Positions 3,124-20,706 of a stretch of DNA of 64,000 bases are shown piece after piece. The DNA comes from Candidatus Latescibacterota bacterium (GTDB lineage: Bacteria; Latescibacterota; UBA2968; GCA-2709665). The position numbers and the translations under genes are program-made. The DNA is taken from positions 3,840,001 through 3,904,000 of the forward strand of contig OZ252100.1 in assembly GCA_965248435.1 (NCBI GenBank). Reading direction: 5' to 3'. Positions within the stretch are counted from its first letter, which is position 1. Each line of letters opens with the position of its first letter. The notes under the pieces were generated by a model. That model did no database searches. It worked only from the letters and a program-made list of their open reading frames with translations, and was not told where the DNA came from.

Positions 3124-3279
3124 TAACGGGTACCGGGGAATCAAAACACGGGTACAGGGTACCGTAAAACCGTGAATCGTGGATCGTGGATCGTAAACTA
3201 GCCGGATAGAATGCGGCCGTGCATCGGGTAGGCTCCAGGCGGCGAATTTCAGCTTGATTTTTTAGATGAGGAGCTGACA
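3124..3279 (+). repeat. Duplicated intergenic spacer (second copy 5791-5940) containing one unit of the 22-bp repeat family
   Basis: taacgggtaccggggaatcaaaacacgggtac..gtggatcgtggatcg..gcatcgggtaggctccagg..gagctgacaATG occurs in both spacers. Confidence 0.85.
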
Positions 3280-5790
3280 ATGTCGAGCATTTATAATGTA
3301 AAGGAGTTCGGGGCGAAGGGGGACGGCGTGACCCTGGATACGGAGGCGATCCAGAAGACGGTCGATGCCTGCGCCGAGGCGGGCGGAGGGACCGTTACCC
3401 TTCCCACGGGTACCTATCTATGCTCGACCTTTTATTTGAAGAGCCGGATCACGTTTGAGGTCGGTCAGGGAGCAGTACTGCTGGGGAGCAAGAACCTGTC
3501 AGATTATGGTGCATTTACGGACAAGGAGTTTTGCAGGGTGGCCGGCTGCGCGGGCTACTTCATCCGCGGCATCAACCTTGAGGATGTGACGATATCCGGA
3601 CCGGGCGTGATCGACGGAAACGAAGCGGTTCGCGAAGATGGCAATCGGGGGCCGATGACGATCCTGTTCGAGGATTGCCGGGACGTCACCGTTCGAGACA
3701 TCACGATCATTCGCGCTCCGGGGTGGTGCACGACCTTCGTTGAGTGTGAAGATCTACGGATTCTGAGGGTCAACGCACGGGATTGCGAGTGCGATGGGAT
3801 CAACATCGTGAGCTGCAGGCGGGTTCTCTACGACGGCTGCGTGATCGATACGACCCATGATGACCCGCTGTGTATCAAGAACGAAGGAAGGCCGGGTGAC
3901 CCTAAGCGACACCGTTACAAGAATGTGACGGAGGACGTGATTATCTCCAACACGGTGATTCGGAATACCACGCATCCAGCGATCAAGATCGGGACGGCGA
4001 CCTCCGGGGTTTTCCGAAATATCCTGGTGTCGAACTGCATCTTCGAAAACGTAAGGAGCATGTTTACCATCCAGCTCATGCGACCCAAGCTGGAGGAGAC
4101 GAAGGAGCGGATCATCGAAAACGTGATGTTTTCGAACGTCACCGTGCGGGACGTGCGGGATGTATTCGATATCACGACGATGGCCGTGGATGAAGCGGCC
4201 GTTTCAGATTTGGTTTTCGACAATCTGCTGGTCTCCGGCATGCGCGAGTCCTCGAAGATCCATGGGACCGAGCAGGTCTCGATCAGCAACGTCGCGATCA
4301 AGAACTCCCGCTTCGTTCATTCCCAGAGCAGCATGACCAAATGGCTGTCCTGTTCCTACACGAAAAATCTGACGGTTCGGGATGTGACGTTCGATCTCCG
4401 GGAGCCGCTGGACAGGGTCGTGGAGCTTGACAAGACGGACGGGTTTACGTGGGACAGGGTTTCCTTACTGGGCGATGCGGTGCGTGACTGTGTCGTCACG
4501 GTCGATAACTCTGCCGGTGTTGAGATCCGGGGCTGCACTGCGAAGAACGTCCATACCTATCTTCAAGTCGGAGAAGGAGGGCTGGCGGATATTCGATTTC
4601 TGGGGAACGATCTGCAGGATGCGTGGGAAGCTTTCCTGGCCGAGTCGGACGCGATTTCGGGGCGCGTCCGACCTCTGGCCGACCGTGTTTCGTGCTCCGT
4701 CCTCGAGATGGAGAGGGAAATCGATCCCGGAACGGCGCTCACGATCAAGGCAGAGCTCCAGAACGAGGGACAGGCAGGCGCGTTTCTTTTGAGTGTGATC
4801 GAGGACGGCAAAACGCTGGGTGGCCGGTGGGTGTTCCTCGGACCGGGAGAGCGCAGGACCGCGGCGTTCGAGACGGAACCGATCTATCCGTCCAGAAGCC
4901 ACGTGATCGAGGTCGGCGGTGTGACGGAGGAGGTGACCGTTCGAGAGGCCCCGTGTACGCTCGCGCATCCCGGGCCATTCGAACTGCGGCTGGAAGAGGG
5001 TAAGCCTGAGGCGTCGTGGGTGAAGGTCCCGGTCCAGAATATCGGGGGAAAGCGCGGCGTGGCGGAGGTGATGCTGGATGCAGCCGGGCATAGGTTGAAG
5101 AAGGAGATCTCGCTGGAACCGGGAGAATCTTCCTATATAACTTTCGATGATTTCAAAGGAGTGCCGTCTTTGCTTCCGCTCAGGGTAGGAGATTATCCCC
5201 CCTTAGAGTATTACACGTATGCAAATACGGAAGGGCGATTCCTATACCATCACGACGGTCGCATCGAGATTCACGCGGGGGGGGAACGTGGAACATTCGA
5301 GCAGCACGCAGTTGTCTACCTTCCGCGGATTGTGGGCGATTACACGGCGGTCTGCCGTTTGATCCATCAGGACAACCATACGGGGGAATATGCGGGCGCG
5401 GGTCTGATTGCACGAAACGCGATGACGGACGATGGGTCTGCAGGTCACGCCAAGTATCATCGTGTCATCAAGTACGGTGGGTTTATGAATTTTCGCGTCG
5501 ACAGCGATGGGGATGGAAAACTGGACGTGGGGGGCGGCGGGCAAGGCGGGCGCATCCCTTTCTGGTTGAAGATCGAGAGGCGGGGAAAGGACTTCCGGGC
5601 CTACGTAAGCGGGGATGGCGAGCACTGGGAGGAGAACCAGGCGATGAAGGGGGGCAAGCGAAAGCTCCTCAGGGGCCACTTTGTCCTGGAAAACACTGCG
5701 GATATACAGGATGTGGGTGTTTTCGGGCTTGCTTACGGCGGCGGGATATCCGAAGTGATTGTAGAAGACTTCGGCGTTACGAAAAGCTGA
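3280..5790 (+). CDS. Beta-helix GH28-like protein, copy 2
   Basis: Full-length paralogue of 568-3123; GAGGAG RBS. Confidence 0.8.
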   Translation: MSSIYNVKEFGAKGDGVTLDTEAIQKTVDACAEAGGGTVTLPTGTYLCSTFYLKSRITFEVGQGAVLLGSKNLSDYGAFTDKEFCRVAGCAGYFIRGINLEDVTISGPGVIDGNEAVREDGNRGPMTILFEDCRDVTVRDITIIRAPGWCTTFVECEDLRILRVNARDCECDGINIVSCRRVLYDGCVIDTTHDDPLCIKNEGRPGDPKRHRYKNVTEDVIISNTVIRNTTHPAIKIGTATSGVFRNILVSNCIFENVRSMFTIQLMRPKLEETKERIIENVMFSNVTVRDVRDVFDITTMAVDEAAVSDLVFDNLLVSGMRESSKIHGTEQVSISNVAIKNSRFVHSQSSMTKWLSCSYTKNLTVRDVTFDLREPLDRVVELDKTDGFTWDRVSLLGDAVRDCVVTVDNSAGVEIRGCTAKNVHTYLQVGEGGLADIRFLGNDLQDAWEAFLAESDAISGRVRPLADRVSCSVLEMEREIDPGTALTIKAELQNEGQAGAFLLSVIEDGKTLGGRWVFLGPGERRTAAFETEPIYPSRSHVIEVGGVTEEVTVREAPCTLAHPGPFELRLEEGKPEASWVKVPVQNIGGKRGVAEVMLDAAGHRLKKEISLEPGESSYITFDDFKGVPSLLPLRVGDYPPLEYYTYANTEGRFLYHHDGRIEIHAGGERGTFEQHAVVYLPRIVGDYTAVCRLIHQDNHTGEYAGAGLIARNAMTDDGSAGHAKYHRVIKYGGFMNFRVDSDGDGKLDVGGGGQGGRIPFWLKIERRGKDFRAYVSGDGEHWEENQAMKGGKRKLLRGHFVLENTADIQDVGVFGLAYGGGISEVIVEDFGVTKS

Positions 5791-5940
5791 TAACGGGTAC
5801 CGGGGAATCAAAACACGGGTACCGGGTACCGCAAGACTGTGGATCGTGGATCGGAAAGCGACTAGATAGAACGCGGTCGCGCATCGGGTAGGCTCCAGGT
5901 GGCGAATTTCAGCTTGATTTTTGAGATGAGGGAGCTGACA

Positions 5941-8448
5941 ATGTCGAGTATATATAATGTAAAGGAGTTCGGGGCGAAGGGGGACGGCGTGACGCTGGAT
6001 ACGGAGGCGATCCAGAAGACGATCGACGCGTGTGCCGAGGCGGGTGGGGGGGTGGTCACCCTTCCTTCGGGCACGTATCTATGCTCGACCTTTTATTTGA
6101 GAAGCAACATGACGTTTGAGGTTGGTCAGGGGGCGGTGCTGCTTGGGAGCAAGAATATGTCTGATTATGGTGCGTTTACGGAGGACAAGGAGTTTTGCAG
6201 AGTGGCCAGTTGCGCGGGCTACTTCGTTCGGGGAATCGACCTTCATGATGTAACGGTATGCGGACCGGGCGTGATCGATGGAAACGATGCGGCTTGTGAA
6301 GACGGCAATCGAGGTCCGATGACGATCCTGTTCGAGGGTTGCCGGGATGTGACGGTTCGGGATATCGCAGTCATTCGTTCTCCGGGGTGGTGCACGACTT
6401 TTGTCGAATGCGAAGATGTCCGGATCCTTAGGGTCAACGTACTGGATTGCGACAACGGTGGGTTCACAACCGAGAGCTGCAGCCGGGTTCTCTACGACGG
6501 CTGCGTGATCGAAAGGACCTACGACGACCCGCTGTGCATCAAGAACACTTCCGGATACAACGATGTAACAGAGGACTTGATTATCTCCAACACCGTGATT
6601 CGGAACATCGGGAAGCGCGGGACACATCCTGCGATCAAGATCGGGACGGCGACGGCAGGGGTTTTCAGAAACATCCTGGTATCGAATTGCATGTTTGAAA
6701 ACGCACAAAGCATGTTTGCGATCCAGCTTATGCGCCCCAAGCTGAAGGAGAACAAGGAACGGATCATTGAAAATGTGGTGTTTTCAAACGTCATCGTAAG
6801 AGACGTGTGGAATGTAATTGACATCACAACGATGGGCGTGGATGAGGCGGCTGTCTCAGATCTGGTTTTCGACAATCTGCTTGTTTCCGGCATGCGCGAA
6901 CCCTCGAGGATCCACGGGACCGAGCAAGTCTCGATCAGCAACGTTGCGATCAAGAACTCCCGGTTCGTTCATTCCAGGAACAGCATGACGAAATGGCTGT
7001 CCTGTCTCTACACGAAAAACCTGATGGTCCGGGACGTGACGTTCGATCTCCGAGAACCGTTGGAGAGCATTGCGGAGGTGGATCGGGCAGATGGGTTTAC
7101 CTGGGACAGCGTATCGATACAGGGTGAGGCAAGGGCTGACCGTGGGGTGACGATCGGGAACGCTTCAGATGTAGAGATCCGGGGCTGTGGCGCGAAAGGC
7201 GTCAATACGTATCTTCAGGTTGGGGAAGGAGGGCTGTCGGATGTCCGATTTCTGGGCAACGACTTTCAGGACGCATCGGAGGCCTCTTTTGCCCGGTGGG
7301 ACGCGATTTCAGGGGATGTCCGACCTCTGGCTGACCGTATTTCGAGCTCTGTTCTGGAGATGGAAAGGGAGATCGATCCCGGCACGGCACTCACGATCAA
7401 GGTCAAGCTCAAGAACGAGGGGAGCGCAGGTGCATTTCTGCTGAAGGTGACCGAGGATAGCAAAACACTGGGTGGAAGGTGGGTGCTTCTCGGGCCAGGG
7501 GAGTGCAGGACGGTAGCGTTTGAGACGGAACCGATCTATCGGTCCGGAAACCACGCGCTACAAGTGGGCAGCGTGCTGGAGACCGTAACCGTTCGAGAGA
7601 TGCCTTGCACGCTCACGCATCCCGGGCCACTCGAACTGCGGCTGGAAGAGGGTAAGCCTGAGGCTTCGTGGGTGAAGGTCCCGGTTCAGAATATCGGAGG
7701 AAAGCGCAGCGTGGCGGAACTGATGCTGGATGCAGCCGGGCATATAATCAAGAAGGAGATCTTGCTGGAACCGGGAGAATCTTCGTTTGTGACCTTCGAT
7801 GATTTCAAGGGTGTGCAGTCTTTACTTCCGCTCAGGGTAGGAGATTATCCCCCCTTAAAATATTGCACGTATGCAAATACTGACGGGCGATTCCTATACC
7901 ATCACGACGGTCGCATCGAGATTCACGCGGGTGGGGAACGCGGAACATTCGAGCAGCACGCAGCTGTCTACCTTCCAAGGATTGTGGGCGACTACACGGC
8001 GGTCTGCCGTTTGATCCATCAGGACAATCATACGGGGGAATACGCGGGGGCGGGTCTGGTTGCACGAAACGTGATGACGGACGATGGGTCTCCGGGTTTC
8101 GCCAAATATTTTCACGTCATCAAGTACGGCGGATTCATGATTTTTTGTGTCGACCTTGACGGGGATGGAAAATTTGACCCGGCAGATGGTTCGGGATGGG
8201 GAGGAGAACGCATCCCTTTGTGGTTGAAACTCGAGAAGCGGGGCAAGGACTTCGGAGCCTACGTAAGTGAGGATGGCGAGAACTGGAAGGAGAACCAGGC
8301 GGGGAAGGGGCCAAATCGGATACGTCTCAGAGGCCATTATATCCTGGAGGACACCGCGGATACGCAGGATGTGGGTGTCTTTGGGTTGGCCTATGGAAAT
8401 GGGATCTCCAAGGTGATCCTAGAAGACTTCAGCGTTACTCCGATCTAA
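5941..8448 (+). CDS. Beta-helix GH28-like protein, copy 3
   Basis: Paralogue; start set to ATG 5941 (MSSIYNVK) by alignment with copies 1 and 2. Confidence 0.8.
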   Translation: MSSIYNVKEFGAKGDGVTLDTEAIQKTIDACAEAGGGVVTLPSGTYLCSTFYLRSNMTFEVGQGAVLLGSKNMSDYGAFTEDKEFCRVASCAGYFVRGIDLHDVTVCGPGVIDGNDAACEDGNRGPMTILFEGCRDVTVRDIAVIRSPGWCTTFVECEDVRILRVNVLDCDNGGFTTESCSRVLYDGCVIERTYDDPLCIKNTSGYNDVTEDLIISNTVIRNIGKRGTHPAIKIGTATAGVFRNILVSNCMFENAQSMFAIQLMRPKLKENKERIIENVVFSNVIVRDVWNVIDITTMGVDEAAVSDLVFDNLLVSGMREPSRIHGTEQVSISNVAIKNSRFVHSRNSMTKWLSCLYTKNLMVRDVTFDLREPLESIAEVDRADGFTWDSVSIQGEARADRGVTIGNASDVEIRGCGAKGVNTYLQVGEGGLSDVRFLGNDFQDASEASFARWDAISGDVRPLADRISSSVLEMEREIDPGTALTIKVKLKNEGSAGAFLLKVTEDSKTLGGRWVLLGPGECRTVAFETEPIYRSGNHALQVGSVLETVTVREMPCTLTHPGPLELRLEEGKPEASWVKVPVQNIGGKRSVAELMLDAAGHIIKKEILLEPGESSFVTFDDFKGVQSLLPLRVGDYPPLKYCTYANTDGRFLYHHDGRIEIHAGGERGTFEQHAAVYLPRIVGDYTAVCRLIHQDNHTGEYAGAGLVARNVMTDDGSPGFAKYFHVIKYGGFMIFCVDLDGDGKFDPADGSGWGGERIPLWLKLEKRGKDFGAYVSEDGENWKENQAGKGPNRIRLRGHYILEDTADTQDVGVFGLAYGNGISKVILEDFSVTPI

Positions 8449-8647
8449 TTTCGAGCACCCACGGCCTTCTCATTTGTCTCCAGCGTCCGCCCCTCGCCCC
8501 GAACAAATTCCTCTGAATTGTGAGGATGGCGGGAAAACACTCGGGAACAAGATCGATCGTGAACATCGAATCGAGAAACTGTCTATTCCATGACGCAGCT
8601 TTGGAGCCAGCTTTCTTACTAGGTGATTAGACGAGGAGCTTCCAGGA

Positions 8648-9682
8648 ATGACCGAGACGATTCTGACTGACGGATACGGATACGGGGCCCTGAGGGACGA
8701 GGTGGCCCTGCTCCTCCAGGAGGGCAAGGCGCGCGCCGCTGCGGCGGTGGCGCGTGAGACGCTGCTGACCTACCACGCGATCGGCGGGGCCGTGAGCGAA
8801 TACCTGCTCGCGCACCCGGCCGCATACGGCGAGCAGACCGTGGCGCGGCTCGCGGCCGACGTTGGGCTCAGCAACTCGATCCTGTATGAGGCCGTGGCTT
8901 TTTATCGATTTCGCCCAATTTTCCACGCGCGTGGAAAATTGGGTTGGACCCACTACCGGGCCCTGCTGAAGCTGCCCACGGACGCCCAGCGGGAGGCGGC
9001 TGAGGCCGCCGCCCAGGAGCATCGCTGGAGCGTTCGAGACCTGGAGGCGCAGATCCGGTCCGGCGCGTTTGAAGGATCCGGGTTGGCCGCGACCGAGGTC
9101 AAGGCTGCTCACCAGCTGCCGGCCCTGCGCGGACAGTTCTACACCTACAAGCTGGTCGAGGCGCCTCAATTCCAGGAACGCAGTCTCCGGCTGGACCTGG
9201 GATTCGGGACTCAGCTCGCGTGGCCGATTCCGGATGCGGAGAGGTTCCGCGGAGGGCAGTTCCTGAACGCGACCCGCCAGGGGCCAGAGAAATACCGCTT
9301 CGCCGAAGCCGTCGAGCGAACCGCCGCATTCTATACCTACGTGGCGCGCGTTCTGCGCGTCATCGACGGAGATACGGTCTGGCTGGACATCGACTGCGGT
9401 TTCCGCGTGTGGGCGCGGCAGAAGGTGAGGCTGCGGGGGATCGACACGCCCGAGATCAAGACGGCGGAGGGCGTGCGTGCCAGGGACTTCGTCGCGGAGG
9501 CGCTGGAGAGCGTCCCGTTCGTCGTCGTGACGACGACGAAGCCGGACAAATACGATCGGTACCTGGCCGACCTGTTCTACCTGCCTGAGGCAGAAAAGGC
9601 GGAAGAAGCGCTGGCGAAGGGACGGTTTCTGAATCGCGAGCTCGTGGAACAGGGATTGGCGGAGCGGGTCAGAAAGGGATGA
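8648..9682 (+). CDS. Fusion of a DUF1016/YhcG N-terminal-like domain and a thermonuclease (SNase) domain
   Basis: N-term TYHAIG..YGEQTVARLA..LGWTHYRALL..WSVRDLEAQI; C-term RVIDGDTV..VRLRGIDTPE..DKYDRYLA. Confidence 0.8.
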   Translation: MTETILTDGYGYGALRDEVALLLQEGKARAAAAVARETLLTYHAIGGAVSEYLLAHPAAYGEQTVARLAADVGLSNSILYEAVAFYRFRPIFHARGKLGWTHYRALLKLPTDAQREAAEAAAQEHRWSVRDLEAQIRSGAFEGSGLAATEVKAAHQLPALRGQFYTYKLVEAPQFQERSLRLDLGFGTQLAWPIPDAERFRGGQFLNATRQGPEKYRFAEAVERTAAFYTYVARVLRVIDGDTVWLDIDCGFRVWARQKVRLRGIDTPEIKTAEGVRARDFVAEALESVPFVVVTTTKPDKYDRYLADLFYLPEAEKAEEALAKGRFLNRELVEQGLAERVRKG

Positions 9683-10019
9683 AAGCACGGTCCTTTAGAC
9701 GACCTGATGGAAATTAGGTTCTATGGTTCAGAATATTAGGTGTATCTATAGAAAGGCATTCACGTAATAGGGCGCATTATCTATATTATTGGCAGGATTT
9801 ACGCAGTGCATTTTATCTGCCCTACAGGTGGAATCTGCGCACATGGTGCGCGAATGCAGAAGTTGAACTAAACCGCTTCGCGGTGGCCTGCTGCAAGGCC
9901 TTTGCTCTTTGACAACCAGGATATGATACCGTGCAAGTCCGGAGCCACTTTGCAAATGGCTCTGTGCTTCGCATCCTCCTTCTGCTAACAACGTCCACCA
10001 TCAGCAGAAGGAGAGAGCC

Positions 10020-10871
10020 ATGACCAAGCATCGGAAGCGAATGATCCGGGACATGCAGTTGAAAGGTTTAGATCCGGATACGCAGAAGGCGTACGTGAGC
10101 GGAGTGGCCGGGCTGTGTCGTTACTGCAAGACACCGCCCGACCGGCTCAGCGAAGAAGAGATCCGCGCCTATCTGCACTATCTGATCACTGAGCGGAAGC
10201 TGTCCCAAAGCTATGTCAACCAGGTATACAGCGGGCTGAAGTTTCTGTTCCAAACGACGTTGAAGCGTGACTGGGTCGAGTGGGGCATCCCTCGTGCGAA
10301 GAAGGCAAAGAAGCTCCCGGTGGTACTCTCCACAGAGGAAGTGCAGCGGCTGATCGACAGGACCAACAACCTGAAACACCGTACGCTGCTGATGGTCATT
10401 TACTCTGGCGGGCTCAGACTGAGTGAGGCCATCGGGCTAAAGCTTTCCGATATCGACAGTGACCGGATGCTGATCCGTGTGCGGGGCAAAGGCCAAAAAG
10501 AGCGAGAGACGCTTCTGGCCCAGGAGGCCTTAAAGGCACTCCGCGTCTATTGGCGCACCAACCCGTCTCGCGATTGGCTGTTCCCCGGCGAAAGACCGGA
10601 CGCGCCGCTCCATGCTCGCACTGTCCAGAAAGTCTTCGAGCAGGCCTGCCGACGCGCGGAGATACAAAAGCGTGCGAGTGTCCACTCGCTGCGTCACAGC
10701 TTCGCCACGCATCTTCTGGACAACGGAGTCGACATCCGCTTCGTCCAACAACTGTTGGGTCACACGAGCATTCGAACCACCACCGTCTACCTCCACGTCA
10801 CCACCCGGGACCTCACGCGTATCAGAAGCCCCCTGGACCTTTTGGGAGATGAAGACAAGCCGACTTCGTAG
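10020..10871 (+). CDS. Tyrosine recombinase (N-terminal SAM-like + catalytic domain), without the IntI-specific insertion
   Basis: YSGGLRLSE (R), GKGQKER (K), HSLRHSFATH (HxxR), LLGH..TTVY (H, Y); 283 aa; the segment before WLFPG is short. Confidence 0.92.
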   Translation: MTKHRKRMIRDMQLKGLDPDTQKAYVSGVAGLCRYCKTPPDRLSEEEIRAYLHYLITERKLSQSYVNQVYSGLKFLFQTTLKRDWVEWGIPRAKKAKKLPVVLSTEEVQRLIDRTNNLKHRTLLMVIYSGGLRLSEAIGLKLSDIDSDRMLIRVRGKGQKERETLLAQEALKALRVYWRTNPSRDWLFPGERPDAPLHARTVQKVFEQACRRAEIQKRASVHSLRHSFATHLLDNGVDIRFVQQLLGHTSIRTTTVYLHVTTRDLTRIRSPLDLLGDEDKPTS

Positions 10872-10883
10872 CGGAGGTCGGCC

Positions 10884-12068
10884 ATGTCACAGGCTCTCGA
10901 AGTCGCCGACATCTTCCGGGCCCACGGAGACAGCTATCAAGTAGAATACGGTGATCACATGCCGCTTCGGCAGAAGCGGGCCATGCGGGCTATCCAGATC
11001 TGCCGAACAGCTGCGCTGGGCGGACACGTGGAAGTGTGCGGACACTGCGGAGCGAAGCGGATCGCCTACAACTCCTGCCGCAACCGGCACTGTACGAAGT
11101 GCCAGTTCCTGACGACCGAACGATGGATCGACGCTCGTAAAGAGGATCTCCTTCCGATCCCATACTTCCACGTCGTCTTCACGTTGCCCGAGCCCCTGCG
11201 GCCGCTTGCTCTGCGGAACCAGAAGCTGATCTACAACCTGGTGTTTAAAGCCGCATCGCAGAGTCTTCTGGAGCTGGCGCGGGAACGGAAGTATCTTGGA
11301 GCGCAGATCGGCTTTACCGCCGTGCTTCATACATGGTCTCAGACACTCATCGACCACCCGCATCTGCACTGTATCGTAACTGGAGGTGGGCTGACCCACG
11401 ACGGTCAGGAATGGAAGGCGGCGCGACGGGGCTTCTTTCTACCCGTAAAAGTTCTGTCCCGACTGTTCCGGGGGAAGTTCCTTGCGTTCCTGAAGGACGC
11501 GCACCAGGAAGGCCTTCTGGCGTTCCCGGGATTGAGTGCTCCACTGGAAGATGCGTTCTTCGATCTGCTTCGGGGTCTTTACCAGAGAGAATGGACCGTT
11601 TACGTCAAGCCGACTTTTGCGGATCCAGAACGCATCGTGGCCTATCTGGGACGATACACACACCGGATCGCCATCTCCAACCACCGGCTGGTCGCCTGTG
11701 AGGGCGACCGGGTCTCATTCCACTACCGGGACCGCCAGGCCGGCAACCGACGGAAGCTGATGACCGTCGATGCCTACGAGTTCATCCGGCGGTTCCTGCT
11801 TCACATCCTGCCGGATGGCTTCGTGAAGATCCGGCACTACGGACTGCTCAGCAATCGGGGTCGCCGGAAAAAGCTCGCACGATGCCGTAGGCTCCTGGGC
11901 ACTGTATGCACGACGGCTTCCGCAGCCACAAAGGCGACCTGGCAGGACCTTCTGCTCCGGGTAACAGGCATCGATCTTCAGGTCTGTGCGCAGTGCGGAG
12001 GCCCTATGCTCACAGTCGGAACCCTCGCGCCTCTGCGAGCGCCTCCGGCACATGTTGCCGTAGCTTGA
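10884..12068 (+). CDS. IS91-family rolling-circle (HUH, Y2) transposase with N-terminal zinc-binding domain
   Basis: CRTAALGGH..CGHC..YNSCRNRHCTKC; HPHLHC HUH motif; YLGRY (YxxxY); FIRRFLLHILP..IRHYG; GGAGG RBS directly after the recombinase stop. Confidence 0.93.
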   Translation: MSQALEVADIFRAHGDSYQVEYGDHMPLRQKRAMRAIQICRTAALGGHVEVCGHCGAKRIAYNSCRNRHCTKCQFLTTERWIDARKEDLLPIPYFHVVFTLPEPLRPLALRNQKLIYNLVFKAASQSLLELARERKYLGAQIGFTAVLHTWSQTLIDHPHLHCIVTGGGLTHDGQEWKAARRGFFLPVKVLSRLFRGKFLAFLKDAHQEGLLAFPGLSAPLEDAFFDLLRGLYQREWTVYVKPTFADPERIVAYLGRYTHRIAISNHRLVACEGDRVSFHYRDRQAGNRRKLMTVDAYEFIRRFLLHILPDGFVKIRHYGLLSNRGRRKKLARCRRLLGTVCTTASAATKATWQDLLLRVTGIDLQVCAQCGGPMLTVGTLAPLRAPPAHVAVA

Positions 12069-12273
12069 GCTCCTACACCATCCCTTGCCCGCAAGCCCAA
12101 CCACCCAACACGGCAGTAGTCTGTCCACTCTTTGAGCTTGGTAGAGCGACTATGGGATCCTGCGACATCGGCCCCTCCAAACAGCTTCAAATACGGTCCG
12201 ATGACTGGGCCAGCCCAGCGGTCCTTACACAAGAATCACTCATCCAATCCCCATAGGCAGGTGAAGCGGCTTC

Positions 12274-12348
12274 GTTCAACACCGTGTATCCGGAATCCCG
12301 CTCCCGTCCACGCTTCTCCGACTCCGGATACACGCTTAATCGTTAACT
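12274..12348 (+). repeat. attC-like site A0 (closes the recombinase-transposase module)
   Basis: GTTCAAC, stem cgtgtatccgga/tccggatacacg, then GTTAACT. Confidence 0.75.
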
Positions 12349-12383
12349 GCAATCGTGGCCTGGGTGTCAAAGCAAGGAGAACC

Positions 12384-13448
12384 ATGTTGTCTGTAGCTGT
12401 TGTGGCCCTGGTATCTGTCCTGCTTTTGTCAGATTCTTCTTTCGGAAGAGATGTGAACCTTGACCTGACTCAAGCAGTAGCCGAAAATGACAGCGCCGCC
12501 TTGAGAGTCGCTCTAGATTTAGTTGCAGATGTGAATGCTAAGGACCAGAAAGGCATGACAGCTCTAATGGATGCGGCGATGAACCCCAATCCACACATTA
12601 CACAAATGTTGTTGGATTCAGGAGCAGCTGCAAATGCAATAGATTCGGAAGGCAGGACAGCTTTAATGTATGCGGCAGTGAAAGGAAATATCACAACCGT
12701 TCAAACCCTGTTGGACGCGGGTGCCCATATGAACACTCAAAACCGCGGGGGTAGGACAGTTTTGATGCTAGCTTCAGCAGCGGGTTACGAATCAATCGTA
12801 CAGGTGTTACTGGATGCGGGGGCTAGGGTGAATGCAGAAGACGGGAATGGTTACACGGCATTGAGGTGGGCGGAAAAGAATGCTCACATTGGCATTGCGC
12901 GGACGTTGCGGCTTGAGCGGGTACGGTTTAGGCCAGACATTGATATTCCCCTAATACGGGCATCATTTGCCGGAGACATATCCACTGTCCAAGCCTTGGT
13001 TGAGAAGGGCGTTGATGTGAACTTGAGGGACGAAGGTGGCAATACAGCTCTGAAATGCTCAGCTCGAAAGGGACATACAGACATTGTAGAAGTACTGTTG
13101 GATAGAGGTTCAGACGTGGATGCACAAAGTAAGAATGGCCATACAGCCCTGATGGTGGCAGCTCGTAAGGGCCATACGACTATTTTAGAAGTGCTCCTAG
13201 AAAAGGGCGCAGATGTGAACGCCACGGATATATATAGGGTTACGGCTTTGATGGGCGCGGCAGTCAAGTGTCATCGGACTGTCGTGCAAGCGCTTCTGGA
13301 TAATAATGCGGATGTCAATTTGAAAGACAGTAAGGGTAGAACAGCCTTGGAGTTAGCCAAGATGGCCTTAGGATCTGCCGTCGATTCAAACAAGGAACGC
13401 TATTCTGACCTTATTCTGTTGCTCCAGAATGCAGGAGCCGAGGAATAG
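12384..13448 (+). CDS. Cassette 1: secreted ankyrin-repeat protein
   Basis: Repeated GxTALMxAA..GADVN motifs; hydrophobic N-terminus; AAGGAG RBS before ATG 12384. Confidence 0.9.
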   Translation: MLSVAVVALVSVLLLSDSSFGRDVNLDLTQAVAENDSAALRVALDLVADVNAKDQKGMTALMDAAMNPNPHITQMLLDSGAAANAIDSEGRTALMYAAVKGNITTVQTLLDAGAHMNTQNRGGRTVLMLASAAGYESIVQVLLDAGARVNAEDGNGYTALRWAEKNAHIGIARTLRLERVRFRPDIDIPLIRASFAGDISTVQALVEKGVDVNLRDEGGNTALKCSARKGHTDIVEVLLDRGSDVDAQSKNGHTALMVAARKGHTTILEVLLEKGADVNATDIYRVTALMGAAVKCHRTVVQALLDNNADVNLKDSKGRTALELAKMALGSAVDSNKERYSDLILLLQNAGAEE

Positions 13449-13480
13449 CTGACTGTCAAAAGTTCTACGGCCACGACAGC

Positions 13481-13561
13481 AGTTAACAAGGCACTTGCGG
13501 CTCGGGCCGTGCGGCCCTCGGCAAACCCCTACGGGGTTCGCAAGTGCCTAGACCGTTACAC
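13481..13561 (+). repeat. attC-like site A1
   Basis: AGTTAAC, stem aggcacttgcg/cgcaagtgcct, GTTACAC. Confidence 0.85.
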
Positions 13562-13587
13562 GCCAGGCACACAAGGATGGCTCAAAG

Positions 13588-14160
13588 GTGCTGATGCCCG
13601 AAGCCCTATCCATAATCGTGCAGCGGGTCTTTCACTCCAAGCCTCGATCAACACTGTTGACGGAGAGCACTGCACTCCAAGCTAGCGAGTTGGCCGACAC
13701 TTGCCTGGGCCTGCGCGCGCAGATGCTCCACTGTCTGGAGGGGCTTCCCGCGCTGGCCTTCGAACCGGCGCCTGACCGCCTGCCTGGGGAGACTGGCTGG
13801 ACGGCGGGTGAGATCGTCAGCCACAACACCGACCGCCTGTTGTGGGCGCTGACCGAGGCAACCGCGACCGCCGGACTGAGCGAAAGCATTGTTCCGAGGC
13901 CGCCCGAAGTGGTCGCGAGCAACGCAGCGCACGAGCCTATACTTCTAGACCGCTGCCTTGCCCTGGAGGTCGTGCAGGCGGCAAACGGCCATCTCAAGAG
14001 TGTGCTTCCTCTCCTGTTGTCAACCGACCGGGGGGAGACGACAACGAGGACTCACCACGGACCCATGAGCGTCAAATCGTGGCTACTCCTGATTTGTATC
14101 CACGACAGCGACCATTTGGGGCAGTTGCGCGCACGCCAGGAGCCAGGCACGTTGGCTTGA
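13588..14160 (+). CDS. Cassette 2: DinB-like four-helix protein
   Basis: WTAGEIVSH and IHDSDHLGQL histidine motifs. Confidence 0.7.
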   Translation: MLMPEALSIIVQRVFHSKPRSTLLTESTALQASELADTCLGLRAQMLHCLEGLPALAFEPAPDRLPGETGWTAGEIVSHNTDRLLWALTEATATAGLSESIVPRPPEVVASNAAHEPILLDRCLALEVVQAANGHLKSVLPLLLSTDRGETTTRTHHGPMSVKSWLLLICIHDSDHLGQLRARQEPGTLA

Positions 14161-14203
14161 TGAGGAGGCGATGCTTTTTACATGTGGTGTGGATGTGCCC
14201 GGC

Positions 14204-14345
14204 GTGTAACACGACGGGCTGCGGCTCGTGGCATTCGCCCCTCGCCCAACCTGCCTCATCGCGGTCACGGCACTTGCTCAAGAAAATCGTGGGTGGCAAG
14301 CGCCGCGCCCGCTTGGCAGGTTCGCAGCCCGCGAGAACGTTACAC
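14204..14345 (+). repeat. attC-like site A2 (long form)
   Basis: GTGTAAC, outer stem cgggctgcg/cgcagcccg, inner aacctgcc/ggcaggtt, gagaacGTTACAC. Confidence 0.9.
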
Positions 14346-14408
14346 GCCAGCAGGTTCTTCCTGAAACAACCGATAGGATGATGTTCCTGATGGAGTTCCC
14401 TTGGAGCA

Positions 14409-15299
14409 ATGATGAAAGACTCTTTTTCCGTATCTGACATCCCGCCCGAAGAAATCCAAGAGGTAATCGAGGTCACCAACGACTATCTAGTTGCGTTGGC
14501 GGCTGCGTCGAGGGATCAAGATGGGCATGTAAACGTGAACTGGACTGCTAGCGGCATGCTGGCTACCATAGGCGGTGAGCCCACTATCATCACTGCCCGA
14601 CATGTCGCTGAGGCTCTGGAAAGAGAAGAACCGGAGAGTGTTAAGATCTGGACTGACTTCAGAAAGGAAAGTGCAACGGCAGTAATGTCTTTAGACATTA
14701 CGCATGTACGCTTTGTGAAGTCTGCAAAACCGGCGTCAGGGAAGGCCATTGATGGCCCTGACCTGGCATTGATATTACTTCCGGACCACTTGGTTGGATC
14801 AATATCGGCCACCAAGGGCTTCTACAATCTGGACAAACGGCGCGACGCCGCGCTCCAGCAGGAGGGACCGCCCACGACAGGCTTCTGGCTTGCTCGTGGC
14901 TTTCCGTACGAACTCGTGACCGGGATGGATGGCGCCGAGGGTTTCTGCTTCTACTGCCTCAACCACGTGTGCTACCTCAGCGGATCCCACGAAGAGGCTG
15001 GCCATGATTACTACGACCTGGAGTTCGATTTCACATTGATGGACACCCTATCAGCCTCCGGCGAGCATCCAGAGTTGAAGACCAACCAGGGAATGAGCGG
15101 TGGTCCTATATGGCACGTTAAGGTTCACGGCGACTCGGAGGGCGTACCACGAATAAAGGACCCGCAGGGAGATATCCTTCTCTCCGGAGTGATCTTCTAC
15201 GAGTACGACCTAGAGAAGGAAAGCAAGAAGTTTCGCTGTCACGGAATCCGGTCGGTCTATAAAGCGCTCTACGATCTCCTCAAACAGCAGACTGACTAA
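14409..15299 (+). CDS. Cassette 3: trypsin-like serine protease, no signal peptide
   Basis: IITARHV, DLALI and GMSGGP give a His-Asp-Ser triad. Confidence 0.75.
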   Translation: MMKDSFSVSDIPPEEIQEVIEVTNDYLVALAAASRDQDGHVNVNWTASGMLATIGGEPTIITARHVAEALEREEPESVKIWTDFRKESATAVMSLDITHVRFVKSAKPASGKAIDGPDLALILLPDHLVGSISATKGFYNLDKRRDAALQQEGPPTTGFWLARGFPYELVTGMDGAEGFCFYCLNHVCYLSGSHEEAGHDYYDLEFDFTLMDTLSASGEHPELKTNQGMSGGPIWHVKVHGDSEGVPRIKDPQGDILLSGVIFYEYDLEKESKKFRCHGIRSVYKALYDLLKQQTD

Positions 15300-15316
15300 C
15301 CCTTTGGTGCGCCGGC

Positions 15317-15455
15317 GTGTAACACGAGCACCCACGGCTCCGGCGCATACGCGCCTCCGCTGAAACCTGCCTCCCGCCTTACCAGTCTGCTCTGATAGAT
15401 GCCTGACGGCCTTCGTGAAGAGTCGGCAGGTTCGTGGGTGCCGAGAACGTTAAGT
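15317..15455 (+). repeat. attC-like site A3
   Basis: GTGTAAC, gcacccacg/cgtgggtgc, gagaacGTTAAGT. Confidence 0.9.
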
Positions 15456-15484
15456 GAAACCCGACGAAGGGGTTTACGCAAATC

Positions 15485-16132
15485 ATGCAATCTAAGCGGG
15501 CTGTGGTCCTCCAGCGCATCGCTGCAGAAATCTGGGGGAACCTTACTGACAATGTGATAAAAGTCGCGATCGATGGTGTAGATGGCGCCGGCAAGACGAC
15601 ATTTGCAGACGAGCTCGCTGAAATCATCGAAAACCGACCTATAATCCGTGCATCAGTAGATTTCTTTCACAATCCCCGAGCAATCAGATACCGACAGGGA
15701 AAAGATTCGCCGTTAGGTTTTTTCGAAGACTCGTACAACTACGAGGAACTTCTCGGCTTACTTCTCAATCCTCTAAGTCCTGGAGGGTCTGGGCGCTTTC
15801 GCACTAAGGCATTCGACCACAGGACCGACGCCCACGTTGAGTCACCCGAACTGTACGCGGAGCCAGAGTCGATTCTCTTGTTCGACGGGATTTTCTTGCA
15901 TAGACCTGAACTTTGGGACATATGGGATTATTCAATCTACTTGGACGTGAATTTCGAGAACTCAATTCCGAGATGTGCTCTCCGTGGAGAGGGAAATCCG
16001 GATCCCTATGCCGAGCAGAACCGCCGCTACATAGAGGGGCAGAAAATTTACATCCAAAACTGCCAACCCAGTGAACGGGCAACAATAATCGTCGACAACA
16101 ATGATTTGGATGCTCCCTTTATCGTTTCTTAA
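15485..16132 (+). CDS. Cassette 4: uridine-kinase-like P-loop kinase
   Basis: VAIDGVDGAGKTT Walker A; LLFDGIFL; RRYIEGQ. Confidence 0.8.
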   Translation: MQSKRAVVLQRIAAEIWGNLTDNVIKVAIDGVDGAGKTTFADELAEIIENRPIIRASVDFFHNPRAIRYRQGKDSPLGFFEDSYNYEELLGLLLNPLSPGGSGRFRTKAFDHRTDAHVESPELYAEPESILLFDGIFLHRPELWDIWDYSIYLDVNFENSIPRCALRGEGNPDPYAEQNRRYIEGQKIYIQNCQPSERATIIVDNNDLDAPFIVS

Positions 16133-16166
16133 TGCTGGTACGGCGGGCGTATCCGCGTCGGACTTC

Positions 16167-16294
16167 ACTTAACACGTCCACTTGCGCTGCGGCGCATTCG
16201 CGCCTTGGCCTGACGGCAACCCGCCTTCCTCCTTCGCTGCTTCGCAGCTTCGGAGGGCAAGTCGGCGGGTTCGCAAGTGGCGGGAACGTTATAT
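16167..16294 (+). repeat. attC-like site A4
   Basis: ACTTAAC, ccacttgcg/cgcaagtgg, GTTATAT. Confidence 0.9.
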
Positions 16295-16321
16295 GCAATG
16301 CAGCCAGGAGAGGGTTTTCGA

Positions 16322-17044
16322 ATGGAGAGTCGATTGGATTCGGACCATCCAGATCCCATCCTTGCAGAGCAGGTAGAGTACTACCGTGCTCGGGCTCCAG
16401 AGTACGATGACTGGTACCTCCGCAGGGGGCGATACGATCACGGGCAAGAGCTGAATGACCGATTCAGGGCAGAAATCAACACCGTTGAAACCGAGGTGAG
16501 GGCTCTTGCGAATGTGGACAGGATTTTGGAACTGGCTGCTGGTACCGGCTGGTGGACGAGGCTCTTTCGGGAGACAGGTGCCAGAGTGACGGCCGTGGAT
16601 TCTTCGCCGGAGGTCCTAGCAAAGAACCGGGGTAGGAATGGAGACGAGAAGATCGAGTACGTAGAGGCCGATGTACTCAGTTGGACGCCGCGCGGAAGGT
16701 ATGATCTGGTCTTCTTCGGCTGCTGGCTCTCTCATGTCCCCCCCGACCAGTTTGAGACCTTCTGGAATAGAGTTGGAGAATCTGTGAAACCGGGAGGCAA
16801 AGTGGCTTTCGTGGACACACTGCGAGAAGGAATCAAGACCGTGGCGGCGCGAGACCATCACCGGAGAGAGAATGAAGGCGACATCACCGAACGCTACCTA
16901 AACGACGGAACGCCGTTCAAGATTTACAAAGTCTTCTACCAACCAGAGGAGTTGACAGAACGGCTACAACGACTGGGATGGGAAGTCAAGGTCAAGACCA
17001 GCGGAGAGTACTTCCTTTTCGGATCGGGTGAAAGGGAAAACTAA
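16322..17044 (+). CDS. Cassette 5: class I SAM-dependent methyltransferase
   Basis: ILELAAGTGWW motif I; YDLVFF..WLSHVP. Confidence 0.85.
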   Translation: MESRLDSDHPDPILAEQVEYYRARAPEYDDWYLRRGRYDHGQELNDRFRAEINTVETEVRALANVDRILELAAGTGWWTRLFRETGARVTAVDSSPEVLAKNRGRNGDEKIEYVEADVLSWTPRGRYDLVFFGCWLSHVPPDQFETFWNRVGESVKPGGKVAFVDTLREGIKTVAARDHHRRENEGDITERYLNDGTPFKIYKVFYQPEELTERLQRLGWEVKVKTSGEYFLFGSGEREN

Positions 17045-17088
17045 CCCCCACAGAAATGTGTTTTCTCTCGGCAACCTGGCTGCACTGC

Positions 17089-17175
17089 ATATAACACGAC
17101 GGGCTGCGGCTCCGGCCATTTGGCCTCCGCACCAACCTGCCTGCGGCAGGTTCGCAGCCCGCGAGAACGTTATAG
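17089..17175 (+). repeat. attC-like site A5 (short form)
   Basis: ATATAAC, cgggctgcg/cgcagcccg, GTTATAG. Confidence 0.9.
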
Positions 17176-17252
17176 GAAATGCCAGCAGCTCAACTTACTG
17201 GGTGGTTGTTAAGAATGTTCGGAACTATTGAATCGAAAGAGGTGCGCTGAAC

Positions 17253-17906
17253 ATGAAAGTGCCCTACGCAGACTCCGGTGTATGGGACCGAAGGTTCGAG
17301 CAAGAAGGTGATTTAGACTGGGGAGGGCTTTGGACCGATCCGTTCATAGAACTTTTTCGGGAGAACGGTTGCCATTCGATTCTGGATCTGGGGTGTGGGA
17401 CTGGAAACGATGTACTCCGCCTGGCAGAGGAAGGGTTTCAAGTCACTGGACTGGATTTCTCTGAGCACGCTCTTAATCTAGCGGAGCCTAAGAGGATTCA
17501 GGATGCGACATTCATTCGGGCGGACATGGTCGATGGGCTGCCGTTTGTTGATAAGCGCTTCGATGCTGCAATGGCGAACGTAGCGCTTCACATGTTCGAC
17601 CGTGGCACCACAGACACTGTCATTCAAGAAGTAAGAAGGATCCTCCGTCCGGAGGGAGTGTTCATCTTTCACGTCAACTCTATTGATGATCGAAGGCTGC
17701 GTGAGAAGCGTAGGAAACCCGAGGAGGAACTGGATAAGAATCTTATCAGAGAAGAAGATGGACAGACCGTTCACTTTTTCACCCAGACCGAACTCAAGTT
17801 ACTCTTTGCTGGATGGTCCCAGTTACAACTTGACCACTTGGAGATTCCGCATAGGGAAACGGGTGAACCATTCAAGAGGATGTGGAGAGGAGTGGCCAAG
17901 AATTGA
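17253..17906 (+). CDS. Cassette 6: class I SAM-dependent methyltransferase
   Basis: ILDLGCGTG; GLDFS; RILRPEG. Confidence 0.88.
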   Translation: MKVPYADSGVWDRRFEQEGDLDWGGLWTDPFIELFRENGCHSILDLGCGTGNDVLRLAEEGFQVTGLDFSEHALNLAEPKRIQDATFIRADMVDGLPFVDKRFDAAMANVALHMFDRGTTDTVIQEVRRILRPEGVFIFHVNSIDDRRLREKRRKPEEELDKNLIREEDGQTVHFFTQTELKLLFAGWSQLQLDHLEIPHRETGEPFKRMWRGVAKN

Positions 17907-17943
17907 GGATCTAACCAATTAGAAACATGACTGCTGGCACTTC

Positions 17944-18037
17944 CTATAACACGACCACTTGCGCTGCGTCGCTTTCGCTCCTTGGCCTTTACGGCAACCC
18001 GCCTTTGGCGGGTTCGCAAATGGCGAGAACGTTATGC
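17944..18037 (+). repeat. attC-like site A6
   Basis: CTATAAC, ccacttgcg/cgcaaatgg, GTTATGC. Confidence 0.9.
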
Positions 18038-18143
18038 GCCAATGCTGTTTCTGTGGTGGAAACTGCAGACTAGGGAGCAGACCCCCAGGGCAATTGTTTG
18101 TACACCCAGATTGCCTATGATGGTGTAACGAGCAAGAAAGTTC

Positions 18144-18680
18144 ATGACAAAGATCAAGAACCTTCGAGATGTGGGACTCGGCATCAACGAAATCCTAGTG
18201 GAAAGCATGCTTAGACAGTGCGCTCTCTATCGCAGCGGCGCCCTACCTGATTCTCTGCAAAAGGGTGATCTGCCCTGGGTTGAGACCGTTATTAGCCTGA
18301 GACGGGAGGCCGATCCCGAACTCGAAAACATCAAACAGCTGCAAGTTGCACCCAATGGCTCGATGAACAACTACGTTTTCACGGCTCAGGTCTTCGAAGA
18401 GTGGATTCAGAGACTGTATAGGACACTAGCGGAGTTTACTGTCTGGCCTGTTCTCCTGCATTGTACAGGAGGCAAAGATAGAACTGGAGTTGGCGTCGCC
18501 CTTGTTTTGAGAAACCTTGGCATCTCTGAGGACGCCATTGTGGAGGAGTATATGCGGGGTGAAGGCACTCGCTACCCAGAAAGCATGGAGAACCTCCTAA
18601 AAGAACTCCCTCGGCTGTCACATCTAAGAATGGATGAACAACAAAAGGAAACGATCGGAAGTGAATTGCTGGCGGACTAG
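18144..18680 (+). CDS. Cassette 7: protein tyrosine/dual-specificity phosphatase
   Basis: NLRDVG, LYRSG, HCTGGKDRTG (CX5R). Confidence 0.88.
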   Translation: MTKIKNLRDVGLGINEILVESMLRQCALYRSGALPDSLQKGDLPWVETVISLRREADPELENIKQLQVAPNGSMNNYVFTAQVFEEWIQRLYRTLAEFTVWPVLLHCTGGKDRTGVGVALVLRNLGISEDAIVEEYMRGEGTRYPESMENLLKELPRLSHLRMDEQQKETIGSELLAD

Positions 18681-18766
18681 ACGTCGGGTTCGGATAGAGG
18701 CAAGACCGAGAAAGTCAGGCAAACGACTGCTCTTGTATTTCTGTCGAGACACAGAAACAGCACAGC

Positions 18767-18911
18767 GCATAACAACGGCACCCCCGGCTTCGGCGCTTAC
18801 GCGCCTGCGCGCAACCTGCCTGGCGCTGTCACGGCGCTTGCAATAAATCAAGACCCTGAGGGGCAAGCGCCGCGCCAGCTTGGCAGGTTCGTGGGTGCTT
18901 GACCGTTAAAC
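18767..18911 (+). repeat. attC-like site A7
   Basis: GCATAAC, gcaccc/gggtgc, GTTAAAC. Confidence 0.88.
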
Positions 18912-18933
18912 GACATAAGAAAAATCAATCACT

Positions 18934-19923: not shown

Positions 19924-19944
19924 ATGATGAAACTATCTTACGTC

Positions 19945-20046
19945 GTTTAACAGGCCACACACGCTGCGGTCGCTACGCTCCCTTGGCCTACGGCACAGCG
20001 GCTCCGTTTCACTGCGCCGCCGTCGTGTATGGCCGGACCGTTAGCC
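19945..20046 (+). repeat. attC-like site A8 (divergent sequence)
   Basis: GTTTAAC, ggccacacacg/cgtgtatggcc, GTTAGCC. Confidence 0.8.
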
Positions 20047-20102
20047 GCAAGCGGCAGAGAAACACCAGATTGGGCACAAGGGATCTTAGGACTAGAGAAA
20101 AG

Positions 20103-20498
20103 ATGGAAGACCGGGCTTGCATCGCATTCATCGAAGACGGGCAGATTCTGATGGTTCAACAGCTCGACGGGGGGAGGATGGTCTGGACTTTTCCGGGCGG
20201 AGGGATTCGGAATGGAGAGAGTCCCCGTGAGGCAGCCGTTCGCGAGGCCAGGGAGGAAGTCAACGTATATGCAAAAGTAGGCCGAATCCTATATCGAGGC
20301 CCCAGGAGTACCACCAAAGGAGAGTATTACTGCTTTGAGGGACGAATCGTCAGAGGAGAAGTGAGTCTGGGGAAGGATCCTGAATTGCCGGATGATGCAC
20401 AGGAATTGCAGGATGTCCGGTGGTTTCCAATTACAGAGGTCAGGGATCACTTTGAAGTTTCGAGAATCTTGGGATCTATAGTCCGGAATGAAGGGTGA
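20103..20498 (+). CDS. Cassette 9: NUDIX hydrolase
   Basis: PGGGIRNGESPREAAVREAREEV Nudix box. Confidence 0.9.
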   Translation: MEDRACIAFIEDGQILMVQQLDGGRMVWTFPGGGIRNGESPREAAVREAREEVNVYAKVGRILYRGPRSTTKGEYYCFEGRIVRGEVSLGKDPELPDDAQELQDVRWFPITEVRDHFEVSRILGSIVRNEG

Positions 20499-20693: not shown

Positions 20694-20706
20694 ACTCTCT
20701 TGGTGG

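Follow-up and report, generated by a model that had tools for sequence, protein, structure and literature searches.

The question raised by this locus is whether a transposon-like pair of mobility genes can be built, and can be moved, as a gene cassette of an integron. The locus lies in 64,000 nucleotides of DNA from a Candidatus Latescibacterota bacterium (assembly GCA_965248435.1, contig OZ252100.1, positions 3,840,001 to 3,904,000; this whole stretch is called the window, and positions given without prefix refer to it), in which the gene for a tyrosine recombinase resembling the integron integrase IntI and the gene for an IS91-family Y2 transposase stand at the head of an array of attC sites. 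A preliminary description, made from the letters of the sequence, had proposed that this operon, placed at 9862-12348, is formatted as a cassette with inverted ends and a hairpin site of its own, and is moved as one substrate of the array machinery, so that it might seed or invade arrays. The observation itself is confirmed, the module is real, and the interpretation built on it is partly supported. The explanation that accounts best for the data, and which we consider probable, is that positions 9863-12342 form a mobile integron-type gene cassette, which codes for a short IntI-like recombinase and an IS91-family Y2 transposase and which moves by recombination of an attC-type with an attI-type site.

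The boundaries of the unit carry this explanation. The unit has a length of approximately 2.48 kb and is present in six copies (A to F) in the genome, the proteins of which are 98-100% identical. Alignment of the six copies together with their flanks showed that near-identity has the same limits in every copy, the G of GTTGAAC on the left and ...CGTTA on the right, and therefore the mobile unit, as delimited by near-identity, extends from 9862 to 12345 on the + strand; the left end given earlier stands and the right limit lies 3 nt inside the end given earlier. The crossovers at G9862|T9863 and G12342|T12343 are boundaries of an integron cassette (G|TT), the cassette proper being 9863-12342 by the integron convention, and all six copies present this R' core, starting with G|TTGAAC and ending with ..CG|TTA. 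That the operon is formatted as a cassette and moved as one piece is thus borne out by six copies bounded exactly at G|TT on both sides. Beyond the unit ends the flanks of the six copies are unrelated or just semi-related, and those on the right are unrelated. The copies fall into two sublineages, ABC and DEF, with 5-8 differing positions within and 50-58 between the groups over 2487 nt, and the hairpin and both unit ends are found nowhere else in the genome than in these six modules. Moreover, the stretch is present in contigs of seven public sequencing runs from four studies, none of these runs being listed as RNA; in the four runs that were compared, unitigs break at 9861/9862 and at 12345, with known flanks beyond. 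A go-back joint was absent from the contigs of these four runs, which is uninformative on excision because contigs cannot show rare circles.

All six copies lie directly behind an attI-like sequence (9700-9861, +, in the window), which has a length of approximately 160 nt, is 68-94% identical among the six copies and two empty sites and ends with GAATGCAGAA or a variant of it just before the crossover G. The likeness of these left flanks does not follow the module sublineages (A and D 94%, C and F 83%), so that the unit and the site have had histories of their own. The search for empty sites, which the preliminary description had put forward as a check, yielded two, X1 (...GCAGAA|GTTAAC) and X3 (...GCCGTA|GTTAAG), both with attC sites behind; GTT is present once at the empty sites and on both sides where the unit is present. 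The genes upstream of the attI-like flank are unrelated from site to site. As to position within arrays, for which first and internal placement had been set against each other, five copies have no detectable attC site upstream, copy E being the sole one that is flanked by attC sites to the left and to the right. Behind the copies, 19 attC sites were found for A, 6 for B, 1 for C, 1-2 for D and 11 for E. In the window the unit is followed by a classic integron cassette array (12343-31852, +) with 19 attC sites spanning 13481-31852 (the first at 13481-13561) and mostly short genes on the + strand, beginning with an ankyrin-repeat gene (12384-13448, +) ahead of the first attC site. A genome-wide scan with a regular expression for attC was unspecific, with approximately 1200 matches per strand, and was replaced by local scans and by a model, R1, built from 18 array attC sites of the window.

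The ends of the unit carry inverted arms. The left arm, GTTGAACTAAACCGCTTC (9862-9879, +), begins with GTTGAAC, an R' core of the form GTTRRRY, and the right arm, GAAGCGGCTTCGTTCAAC (12263-12280, +), ends with GTTCAAC, an R'' core of the form RYYYAAC. The two match in inverted orientation at 16 of 18 positions, exactly where the preliminary description had placed them and with the mismatch at position 11 that it had noted. The arms are identical in all six copies and are kept in the related genus represented by genome G004 and in each of the 19 metagenome elements that hold the left end, among which the position-11 mismatch is nearly universal. This conservation is the stronger test, because the shuffle control is weak: its pattern was built from both arms, and two matches were reached in 1 of 100 shuffles. 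Just inside the right end lies CAATCCCCATAG (12245-12256), which the preliminary description had likened to the IS91 oriIS and the core of which, AATCCCCATAG (12246-12256, +), is conserved in relatives: it is present in G004 and, exactly or with 1-2 changes, in all five plasmid relatives read. It is also retained in transposase-less derivatives of the unit and in a 420-nt miniature, and this retention in decayed or transposase-less forms suggests a role in mobility beyond what a plain attC site needs.

Behind the module follows an attC-type site, A0 (12274-12348, +), which is found with the six modules only. Past the GTTC of the right arm, the copies have another 65 nt in common (12281-12345). 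It is composed of the R'' box GTTCAAC (12274-12280), invariant in G004, the L'' (12283-12294) and L' (12323-12334) strands of a 12-bp stem, a 7-nt spacer between L' and R' (12335-12341) and the R' box GTTAACT (12342-12348), within which lies the right crossover; all parts are on the + strand. The bottom strand folds with -15.6 kcal/mol (z -2.5), and 3 of 200 shuffled sequences folded as well. The hairpin that had been assigned to the module as its own is thereby recovered: it travels with all six copies and its stem covaries in relatives. The inner repeat of L'' and L' is kept by structure, and the sequence of the stem is nonetheless partly conserved.

The same format was found outside this genome. 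G004, which belongs to the same family and another genus, holds four copies of the unit with transposase identities of 62% and 53%. Three of these begin with GTTGAAC.AAACCGCT and end with AATCCCCATAGG..GCGGCTTTGTTCAAC, followed by the hairpin and GTTA, and the hairpin stem in G004 carries a compensated change. A full-length canonical intI (464.5 bits) ends 181 nt before the GTTGAAC of a unit and on the same strand, and a second platform, the intI of which is internally deleted, also carries a unit. Compared with the intact copy, the intI of this second platform (L169) reaches 87% identity upstream of the internal deletion and 99.3% downstream of it. One-ended rolling-circle transposition was considered for this locus and rejected, since the platform is a paralogue with an internal deletion, and its module has taken up an insertion; this insertion, of 1647 nt, lies in the 3' untranslated part of the module (L169, G004:C1:2155001-2170000, positions 6830-8476) and is flanked by 9-nt direct repeats.

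The second platform bears on the possibility that the unit is not mobile at all and that segmental duplication, or gene conversion between paralogous loci of greater age, produced the six copies. In favour of this, the left flanks are paralogues of one another, and two platforms of G004 with 87% likeness elsewhere share a tract of 99.3% identity that reaches from within intI through the module. However, in the genome of the window the identity tract of every one of the six copies breaks off at one and the same base to the left and to the right, at G|TT, the right flanks are unrelated, empty sites exist, and contigs from other runs and from metagenomes break at the same bases, which makes duplication or conversion a highly improbable explanation.

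In metagenomes, a search with a right-end pattern, of which GTTCAAC was a part and GTTGAAC was not, returned at least 120 stretches, showing that the unit is common in the environment, and 80 of these were taken for analysis. By our own rule, a hairpin followed by GTT is present at 59 of the 80 right ends, and the left end GTTGAAC is present in all 19 loci that reach it. Since the homologues in G004 and in metagenomes keep the same ends, boundaries unrelated to GTTGAAC and GTTCAAC, which the preliminary description had named as the observation that would speak against it, were not found. The metagenome sequences diverge immediately past GTT, and GTTRRRY is present at 19 of 52 unique sites compared with approximately 3 expected by chance. 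Nineteen distinct hairpin stems pair at 11.4 of 12 positions within a site and at 5.6 of 12 across sites, for sites that had been chosen beforehand by a stem length of 7 bp or more. Furthermore, of 13 loci that extend 300 nt or more upstream, four (L062, L046, L118 and L043) have an IntI-type gene adjoining the left end, divergent in one and co-oriented in three, and these four loci together with G004 show the unit inserted at attI beside an integrase gene.

One of these contigs, L046, also answers the search for a circle junction that had been suggested. Its hairpin is followed by G|TTGAAC and the unit's own left end, with 104 of 104 nt matching, as in a tandem pair or a circle. The junction folds with -27.6 kcal/mol (z -7.5; none of 200 shuffles as good) into an R stem of 18-20 bp, a one-sided loop of 6 nt and an L stem of 13 bp. 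Of the metagenome loci, 21 extend 2600 nt or more upstream of the right end; 13 of these contain both genes and 8 contain no transposase, the latter including decayed copies and copies with other content. A miniature of approximately 420 nt outside these 21 (L074:1204-1541, in oriented coordinates) retains a complete left end as well as the right end and its hairpin, and carries no genes. Five loci (L045, L072, L106, L067 and L068) share a small unit approximately 330 nt before the right end and no transposase; it has a promoter-like site (TTGACT...TATTTT) and two stem-loops directly ahead of the AATCCCCATAG right end and hairpin. Of three loci that were translated by eye, two show an open frame of 10-13 codons, and the frame in L068 is longer. 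The small unit may represent a cassette for a small RNA or a peptide that relies on the same site.

The termini also allow an account in which the element transposes by the classical rolling-circle route of IS91 and strongly prefers certain targets; GTT...hairpin...GTT would then form part of the ori and ter ends, and any resemblance to a cassette would be coincidental. The IS91 family has distinct ori and ter ends and inserts beside a GTTC or CTTG tetranucleotide without target duplication. The Y2 transposase of the unit is intact, and GAAC and GTTC lie inside the two arms, which we take to be the IS91 target and end tetranucleotides. The eight transposase-less right ends among the 21 metagenome loci resemble decayed or miniature transposons, and relatives on plasmids are not in integrons. 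These plasmid relatives, at approximately 50% identity, come from Dinoroseobacter, Clostridium, Rhizobium, Methylomonas and Cupriavidus; they keep the recombinase-transposase pair, the Cupriavidus copy without an annotated integrase gene alongside, and they keep the left motif GAAC.AAACCGC..GCGG and the right motif AATCCCCATAG. A search of plasmid DNA with the right end and hairpin gave chance-level matches alone (E ~1), and a search of a species-genome collection gave one distant match, which was not used. Against these points stand the insertions themselves, which lie exactly at the attI crossover and beside integrase genes in independent contexts, and the flank consensus GTTRRRY, with GTT occurring once where the unit is missing and to its left and right where it is present. 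Moreover, the hairpin is located outside the GTTC end and yet accompanies the unit in every case. Classical transposition is for these reasons an improbable account of the unit. The statement made earlier that IS91-like elements lack terminal inverted repeats is not accurate, as the arms are conserved across the integrase-bearing branch.

The two genes of the unit are on the + strand and are preceded by a leader of 157 nt. The first (10020-10871) encodes an IntI/Xer-like tyrosine recombinase of 283 aa (PF00589, PF13495) without the IntI-specific insertion. Its best match among solved structures is IntI4 (VchIntIA, PDB 2a3v; 125.8 bits in two stretches), and it scores 195.5 bits in two stretches with the IntI model TIGR02249, below the curated cut-off of 265. 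As it falls short both of this cut-off and of the IntI-specific domain, which define IntI, it is not filed as IntI; it may still work like IntI. The second gene (10884-12068) encodes a Y2 transposase of 394 aa, which is open in all six copies and consists of a zinc-binding N-terminus (PF14319, 110 bits) and a Y2 catalytic domain (PF04986, 206.6 bits). It reaches 449.9 bits with NF033538 (cut-off 125), and its translation contains HPHLH and YLGRY, which are presumably the HUH and the two-tyrosine motifs. Judged by domains and scores, it is a clear member of the IS91 family.

The recombinase brings in a further explanation, that of a passive cassette: an ordinary IS91-family element that happens to come with an attC site and is moved solely in trans by a resident integron integrase, while its own enzymes serve a separate rolling-circle cycle. 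Integron integrases are known to insert cassettes at attI as the first cassette, a canonical intI lies directly upstream in G004 and in four metagenome contigs, and the recombinase of the unit is devoid of the IntI-specific insertion. However, no canonical integron integrase above the TIGR02249 cut-off was detected by a six-frame search of the genome, which is 97.5% complete, and yet this genome holds six near-identical copies in two sublineages. Moreover, lineages 40% apart in protein still have the sequence of the R arms and of part of the L stem in common, and for this reason a dedicated, co-evolving protein fits better than recognition by structure only. In addition, AATCCCCATAG is kept in the transposase-less derivatives and in the miniature, and a plain attC site needs no such motif. 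A passive cassette is thus an unlikely explanation, albeit the one among the rivals that deserves most weight.

That the recombinase belongs to the machinery of the arrays, as had been proposed, gains support from its relatives, as it groups with short IntI-like recombinases that flank attC arrays. Homologues with 39-56% identity, mostly in single copy, are present in 25 of 168 genomes of the phylum, the transposase being present in 6 of the 168, and an R1 attC match lies within approximately 1.5 kb in 12 of the 25 homologue loci. In all five genomes scanned as a whole the gene is directly beside an attC array, co-oriented or divergent, with approximately 14-17 scored attC sites each in G001, G003 and G018, approximately 7 in G057 and 3 in G044; 150 of the first-look candidates were scored per genome, and four of the five genomes had been picked for earlier attC matches, so that this is not an unbiased sample. 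Three whole-scanned genomes, of the family of the window's organism, held no canonical intI at E≤1e-40. In this respect the branch shows the arrangement expected of an integron integrase, a gene beside an attI and an attC array, and the copy in the module itself heads an array of 19 sites. In G001, of the same genus, attC sites of the + strand flank the short recombinase gene (1722486-1723304, -) to the left and to the right (G001:C1:1718960-1748138), as if the gene had been placed into the array in reverse.

These array-flanking proteins are short in the same place as the module recombinase. Seven of them scored 161-241 bits with TIGR02249, below the cut-off, and the 41-residue IntI-specific insertion is absent from the module recombinase and its homologues. 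The stretch in question comprises 86 residues in two canonical IntI, 44-45 in 21 of 21 array-flanking proteins, and, among transposase-linked recombinases, 45 in 18 of 19 (the module among them) and 51 in one. In a FastTree phylogeny rooted on the two Xer proteins of the host, the transposase-linked recombinases and one member without an adjacent transposase form a single clade (support 0.989), which is nested among the array-flanking recombinases, and the module and array-flanking proteins together are sister to canonical IntI (support 0.89).

The flanks connect this branch to the site behind which the unit is found. The DNA behind the recombinase stop codon in G018 and G003 aligns over approximately 140 nt with the left flank in the window, with invariant junction columns at ...GTA|GTT, and the left flank is therefore taken to be the attI of the short integrase type. 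The flank homology comes from MAFFT alignment; nucleotide BLAST of the attI-like flank against the loci of the relatives matched the coding part of a relic alone. Next to the unit in the window, positions 9692-9739 (+) read PLDDLMEIRFYGSEY* and represent a vestige of the C-terminus of a module-type, short IntI-like recombinase. The same C-terminal motif ends a remnant of 82 aa upstream of the empty site X1 (..NPLDDPMERE..), from which the catalytic tyrosine has been lost. A decayed canonical intI was considered for the X1 relic and ruled out, as its C-terminal motif is of the module type. The array of the window once had a short recombinase gene at the position of the vestige.

In the mechanism that we propose, the G|TT at attI would recombine with that of the unit's own attC-type site and release the unit as a circle, which would re-enter at attI-type sites and at other GTTRRRY-like sites; re-entry at attI-type sites would place it as the first cassette. 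As to the catalyst, the unit's own recombinase is the likeliest candidate, at approximately even odds; its membership in the same branch as the domain-less recombinases that flank arrays speaks for it, and a resident integrase, where present, may also act. The resident integrase genes of the platforms in this genome appear to be decayed, as seen at X1 and at the vestige, intact members of the branch riding in the cassette alone, and the cassette-borne recombinase would here replace the decayed platform integrase. The Y2 transposase may supply single-stranded copies for the hairpin reaction, or may provide a second, rolling-circle route.

Several observations weigh against such a mobile cassette. 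The L stem of A0 is perfectly paired and has no extrahelical base, while the array attC sites in the window do have a bulged base, and the internal loop between the boxes is asymmetric (2 nt versus 7 nt). Model R1 gave no match at the six A0 sites at E≤0.01; its automatic consensus structure comprises 11 base pairs, so that it is mostly a sequence profile and does not fairly test the structure of A0. Behind copy F there is no attC site, and the mechanism does not account for the spread of approximately 8 attI-like sites behind unrelated genes. In metagenomes, 21 of the 80 right ends fail the rule of hairpin and GTT, owing to cuts at contig ends, weaker stems or ATT or GAT in place of GTT (..CATT or ..CGAT in some), and a strict attC scan of 192 kb downstream of metagenome copies found no further attC site, a weak negative, as the scan recovers 4 of the 19 array sites of the window. 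Two identical copies on a Dinoroseobacter plasmid have different termini and no GTT...GTT, from which it follows that the wider family can move another way. The supports of 0.87 and 0.74 for the nesting of the transposase-linked clade are modest, and the topology is provisional because sampling was seeded with the module protein. We know of no activity of domain-less proteins of this kind, and the IntI-specific domain is reportedly necessary for activity, as the title of a 2001 paper by Messier and Roy has it. Finally, the main survey does not count domain-less recombinases near attC sites as integron integrases, although its cases all had fewer than three attC sites (PMC4889954).

Among known systems, the unit may be compared with integron cassettes. 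It shares with attC sites the R'' box RYYYAAC, the inner inverted repeat, the R' box GTTRRRY and the G|TT crossover, and it takes the first cassette position at attI, lined up with a classic attC array. Unlike ordinary cassettes, its cargo consists of two mobility genes behind a leader, its R stem extends to 18 bp through the terminal repeats, and, in addition to the unbulged L stem, the asymmetric loop and the failure of the local model, the sequence of its site is conserved in the family. The unit would work like an integron cassette, and it passes the structural tests for one apart from two: it has no bulged bases, and the local model does not detect it. With the integrase-bearing subgroup of IS91, to which we presume that elements with ISfinder names such as ISShvi3 belong, it shares the Y2 transposase with zinc-binding N-terminus and the tyrosine recombinase gene ahead, and its plasmid relatives at approximately 50% identity are annotated in the same way; it differs in its cassette format, which is exact, conserved, present in multiple copies and tied to attI. 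Canonical IntI provides the best structural match of the recombinase, and relatives of the recombinase adjoin attC arrays with an attI-like site between, as IntI does, whereas the module protein is shorter in the aligned stretch (45 versus 86 residues) and below the TIGR02249 cut-off.

IS1111-attC elements and group IIC-attC introns are likewise selfish and specialised on integron arrays, and a selfish element in cassette form, which the preliminary description had offered as its alternative, overlaps with the explanation preferred here. The unit differs from both in that it carries its own attC-type site and fills a cassette slot; IS1111-attC elements and group IIC-attC introns insert into attC and interrupt it (PMC9229058). 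The same source, in a passing mention, refers to an IS91-like element beside attC as "a new gene cassette structure" (PMC9229058). By standard criteria the array of the window and the other arrays of the genome would count as attC-site clusters without an integron integrase (CALIN), and they differ from these by an attI-like site at the head, and by a domain-less recombinase in sister genomes and a recombinase-bearing cassette here. A full-text literature search, with ISfinder and TnPedia outside its scope, found no description of a conserved integrase-transposase unit in cassette format and none of domain-less integrases heading large arrays.

Further features of the window and of the other loci were noted. 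Within the array, the attC site at 28284-28427 and other array sites combine the L'' of one local type with the L' of another and look chimeric, as by exchange between attC sites. An IS110-family transposase gene (20707-21798, -; NF033542, 203 bits), which lies just after the attC site at 20552-20693, may be an attC-targeting insertion. Upstream of the unit, three tandem paralogues of approximately 850 aa occupy 568-8448, their DNA repeats being 73-92% alike; the sole one scanned (5899-8448) has pectate-lyase-like and glycosyl hydrolase 28 domains. A DUF1016/SNase-type nuclease gene (8648-9682) lies directly 3' of them and abuts the recombinase vestige. At 58145-59000 there are approximately 40 tandem copies of a 22-nt unit (GGGAACCGGGACACCAGAACAC and variants), and 47-nt elements related to this repeat lie behind genes at 3128, 5795 and 47648. 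The end of the window (59322-64000) holds tandem paralogous genes of approximately 500 aa, spaced by 34-nt inverted repeats of CAATTGCGGATTGCGG-type words. A different, phage-type integrase was found at L038 (G000:C1:4624447-4625493) and at L032 (3797-4919), intact at one locus and split at that of copy C; behind it, both loci share 187 nt, 99.5% identical, which overlap the left flank of copy C.

By definition, an integron has an integrase with a special extra domain, and arrays in which this gene is missing are classed as orphan clusters. A wider view, which is possible and which we put forward tentatively, would be that the domain-less branch consists of working integron integrases that build and shuffle attC arrays in this phylum. 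An offshoot of it would have joined a Y2 transposase in a self-mobilising cassette that lands at attI and is able to take over arrays with a decayed resident integrase, such as those of this genome, and this offshoot would be the ancestor of the integrase-bearing IS91 elements on plasmids from many phyla. The transposase would serve to provide a hairpin-specific recombinase with circles of single-stranded DNA. If it is true that domain-less proteins act on attC and attI, many of the "orphan" arrays have an overlooked integrase, and an integrase can itself be a mobile cassette. Single-strand rolling-circle transposons would then be linked to the single-strand hairpin chemistry of integrons, a link which would bear on the origin of cassettes and of attC sites. 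In the genome of this bacterium the domain-less branch survives only inside a cassette, together with a rolling-circle transposase.

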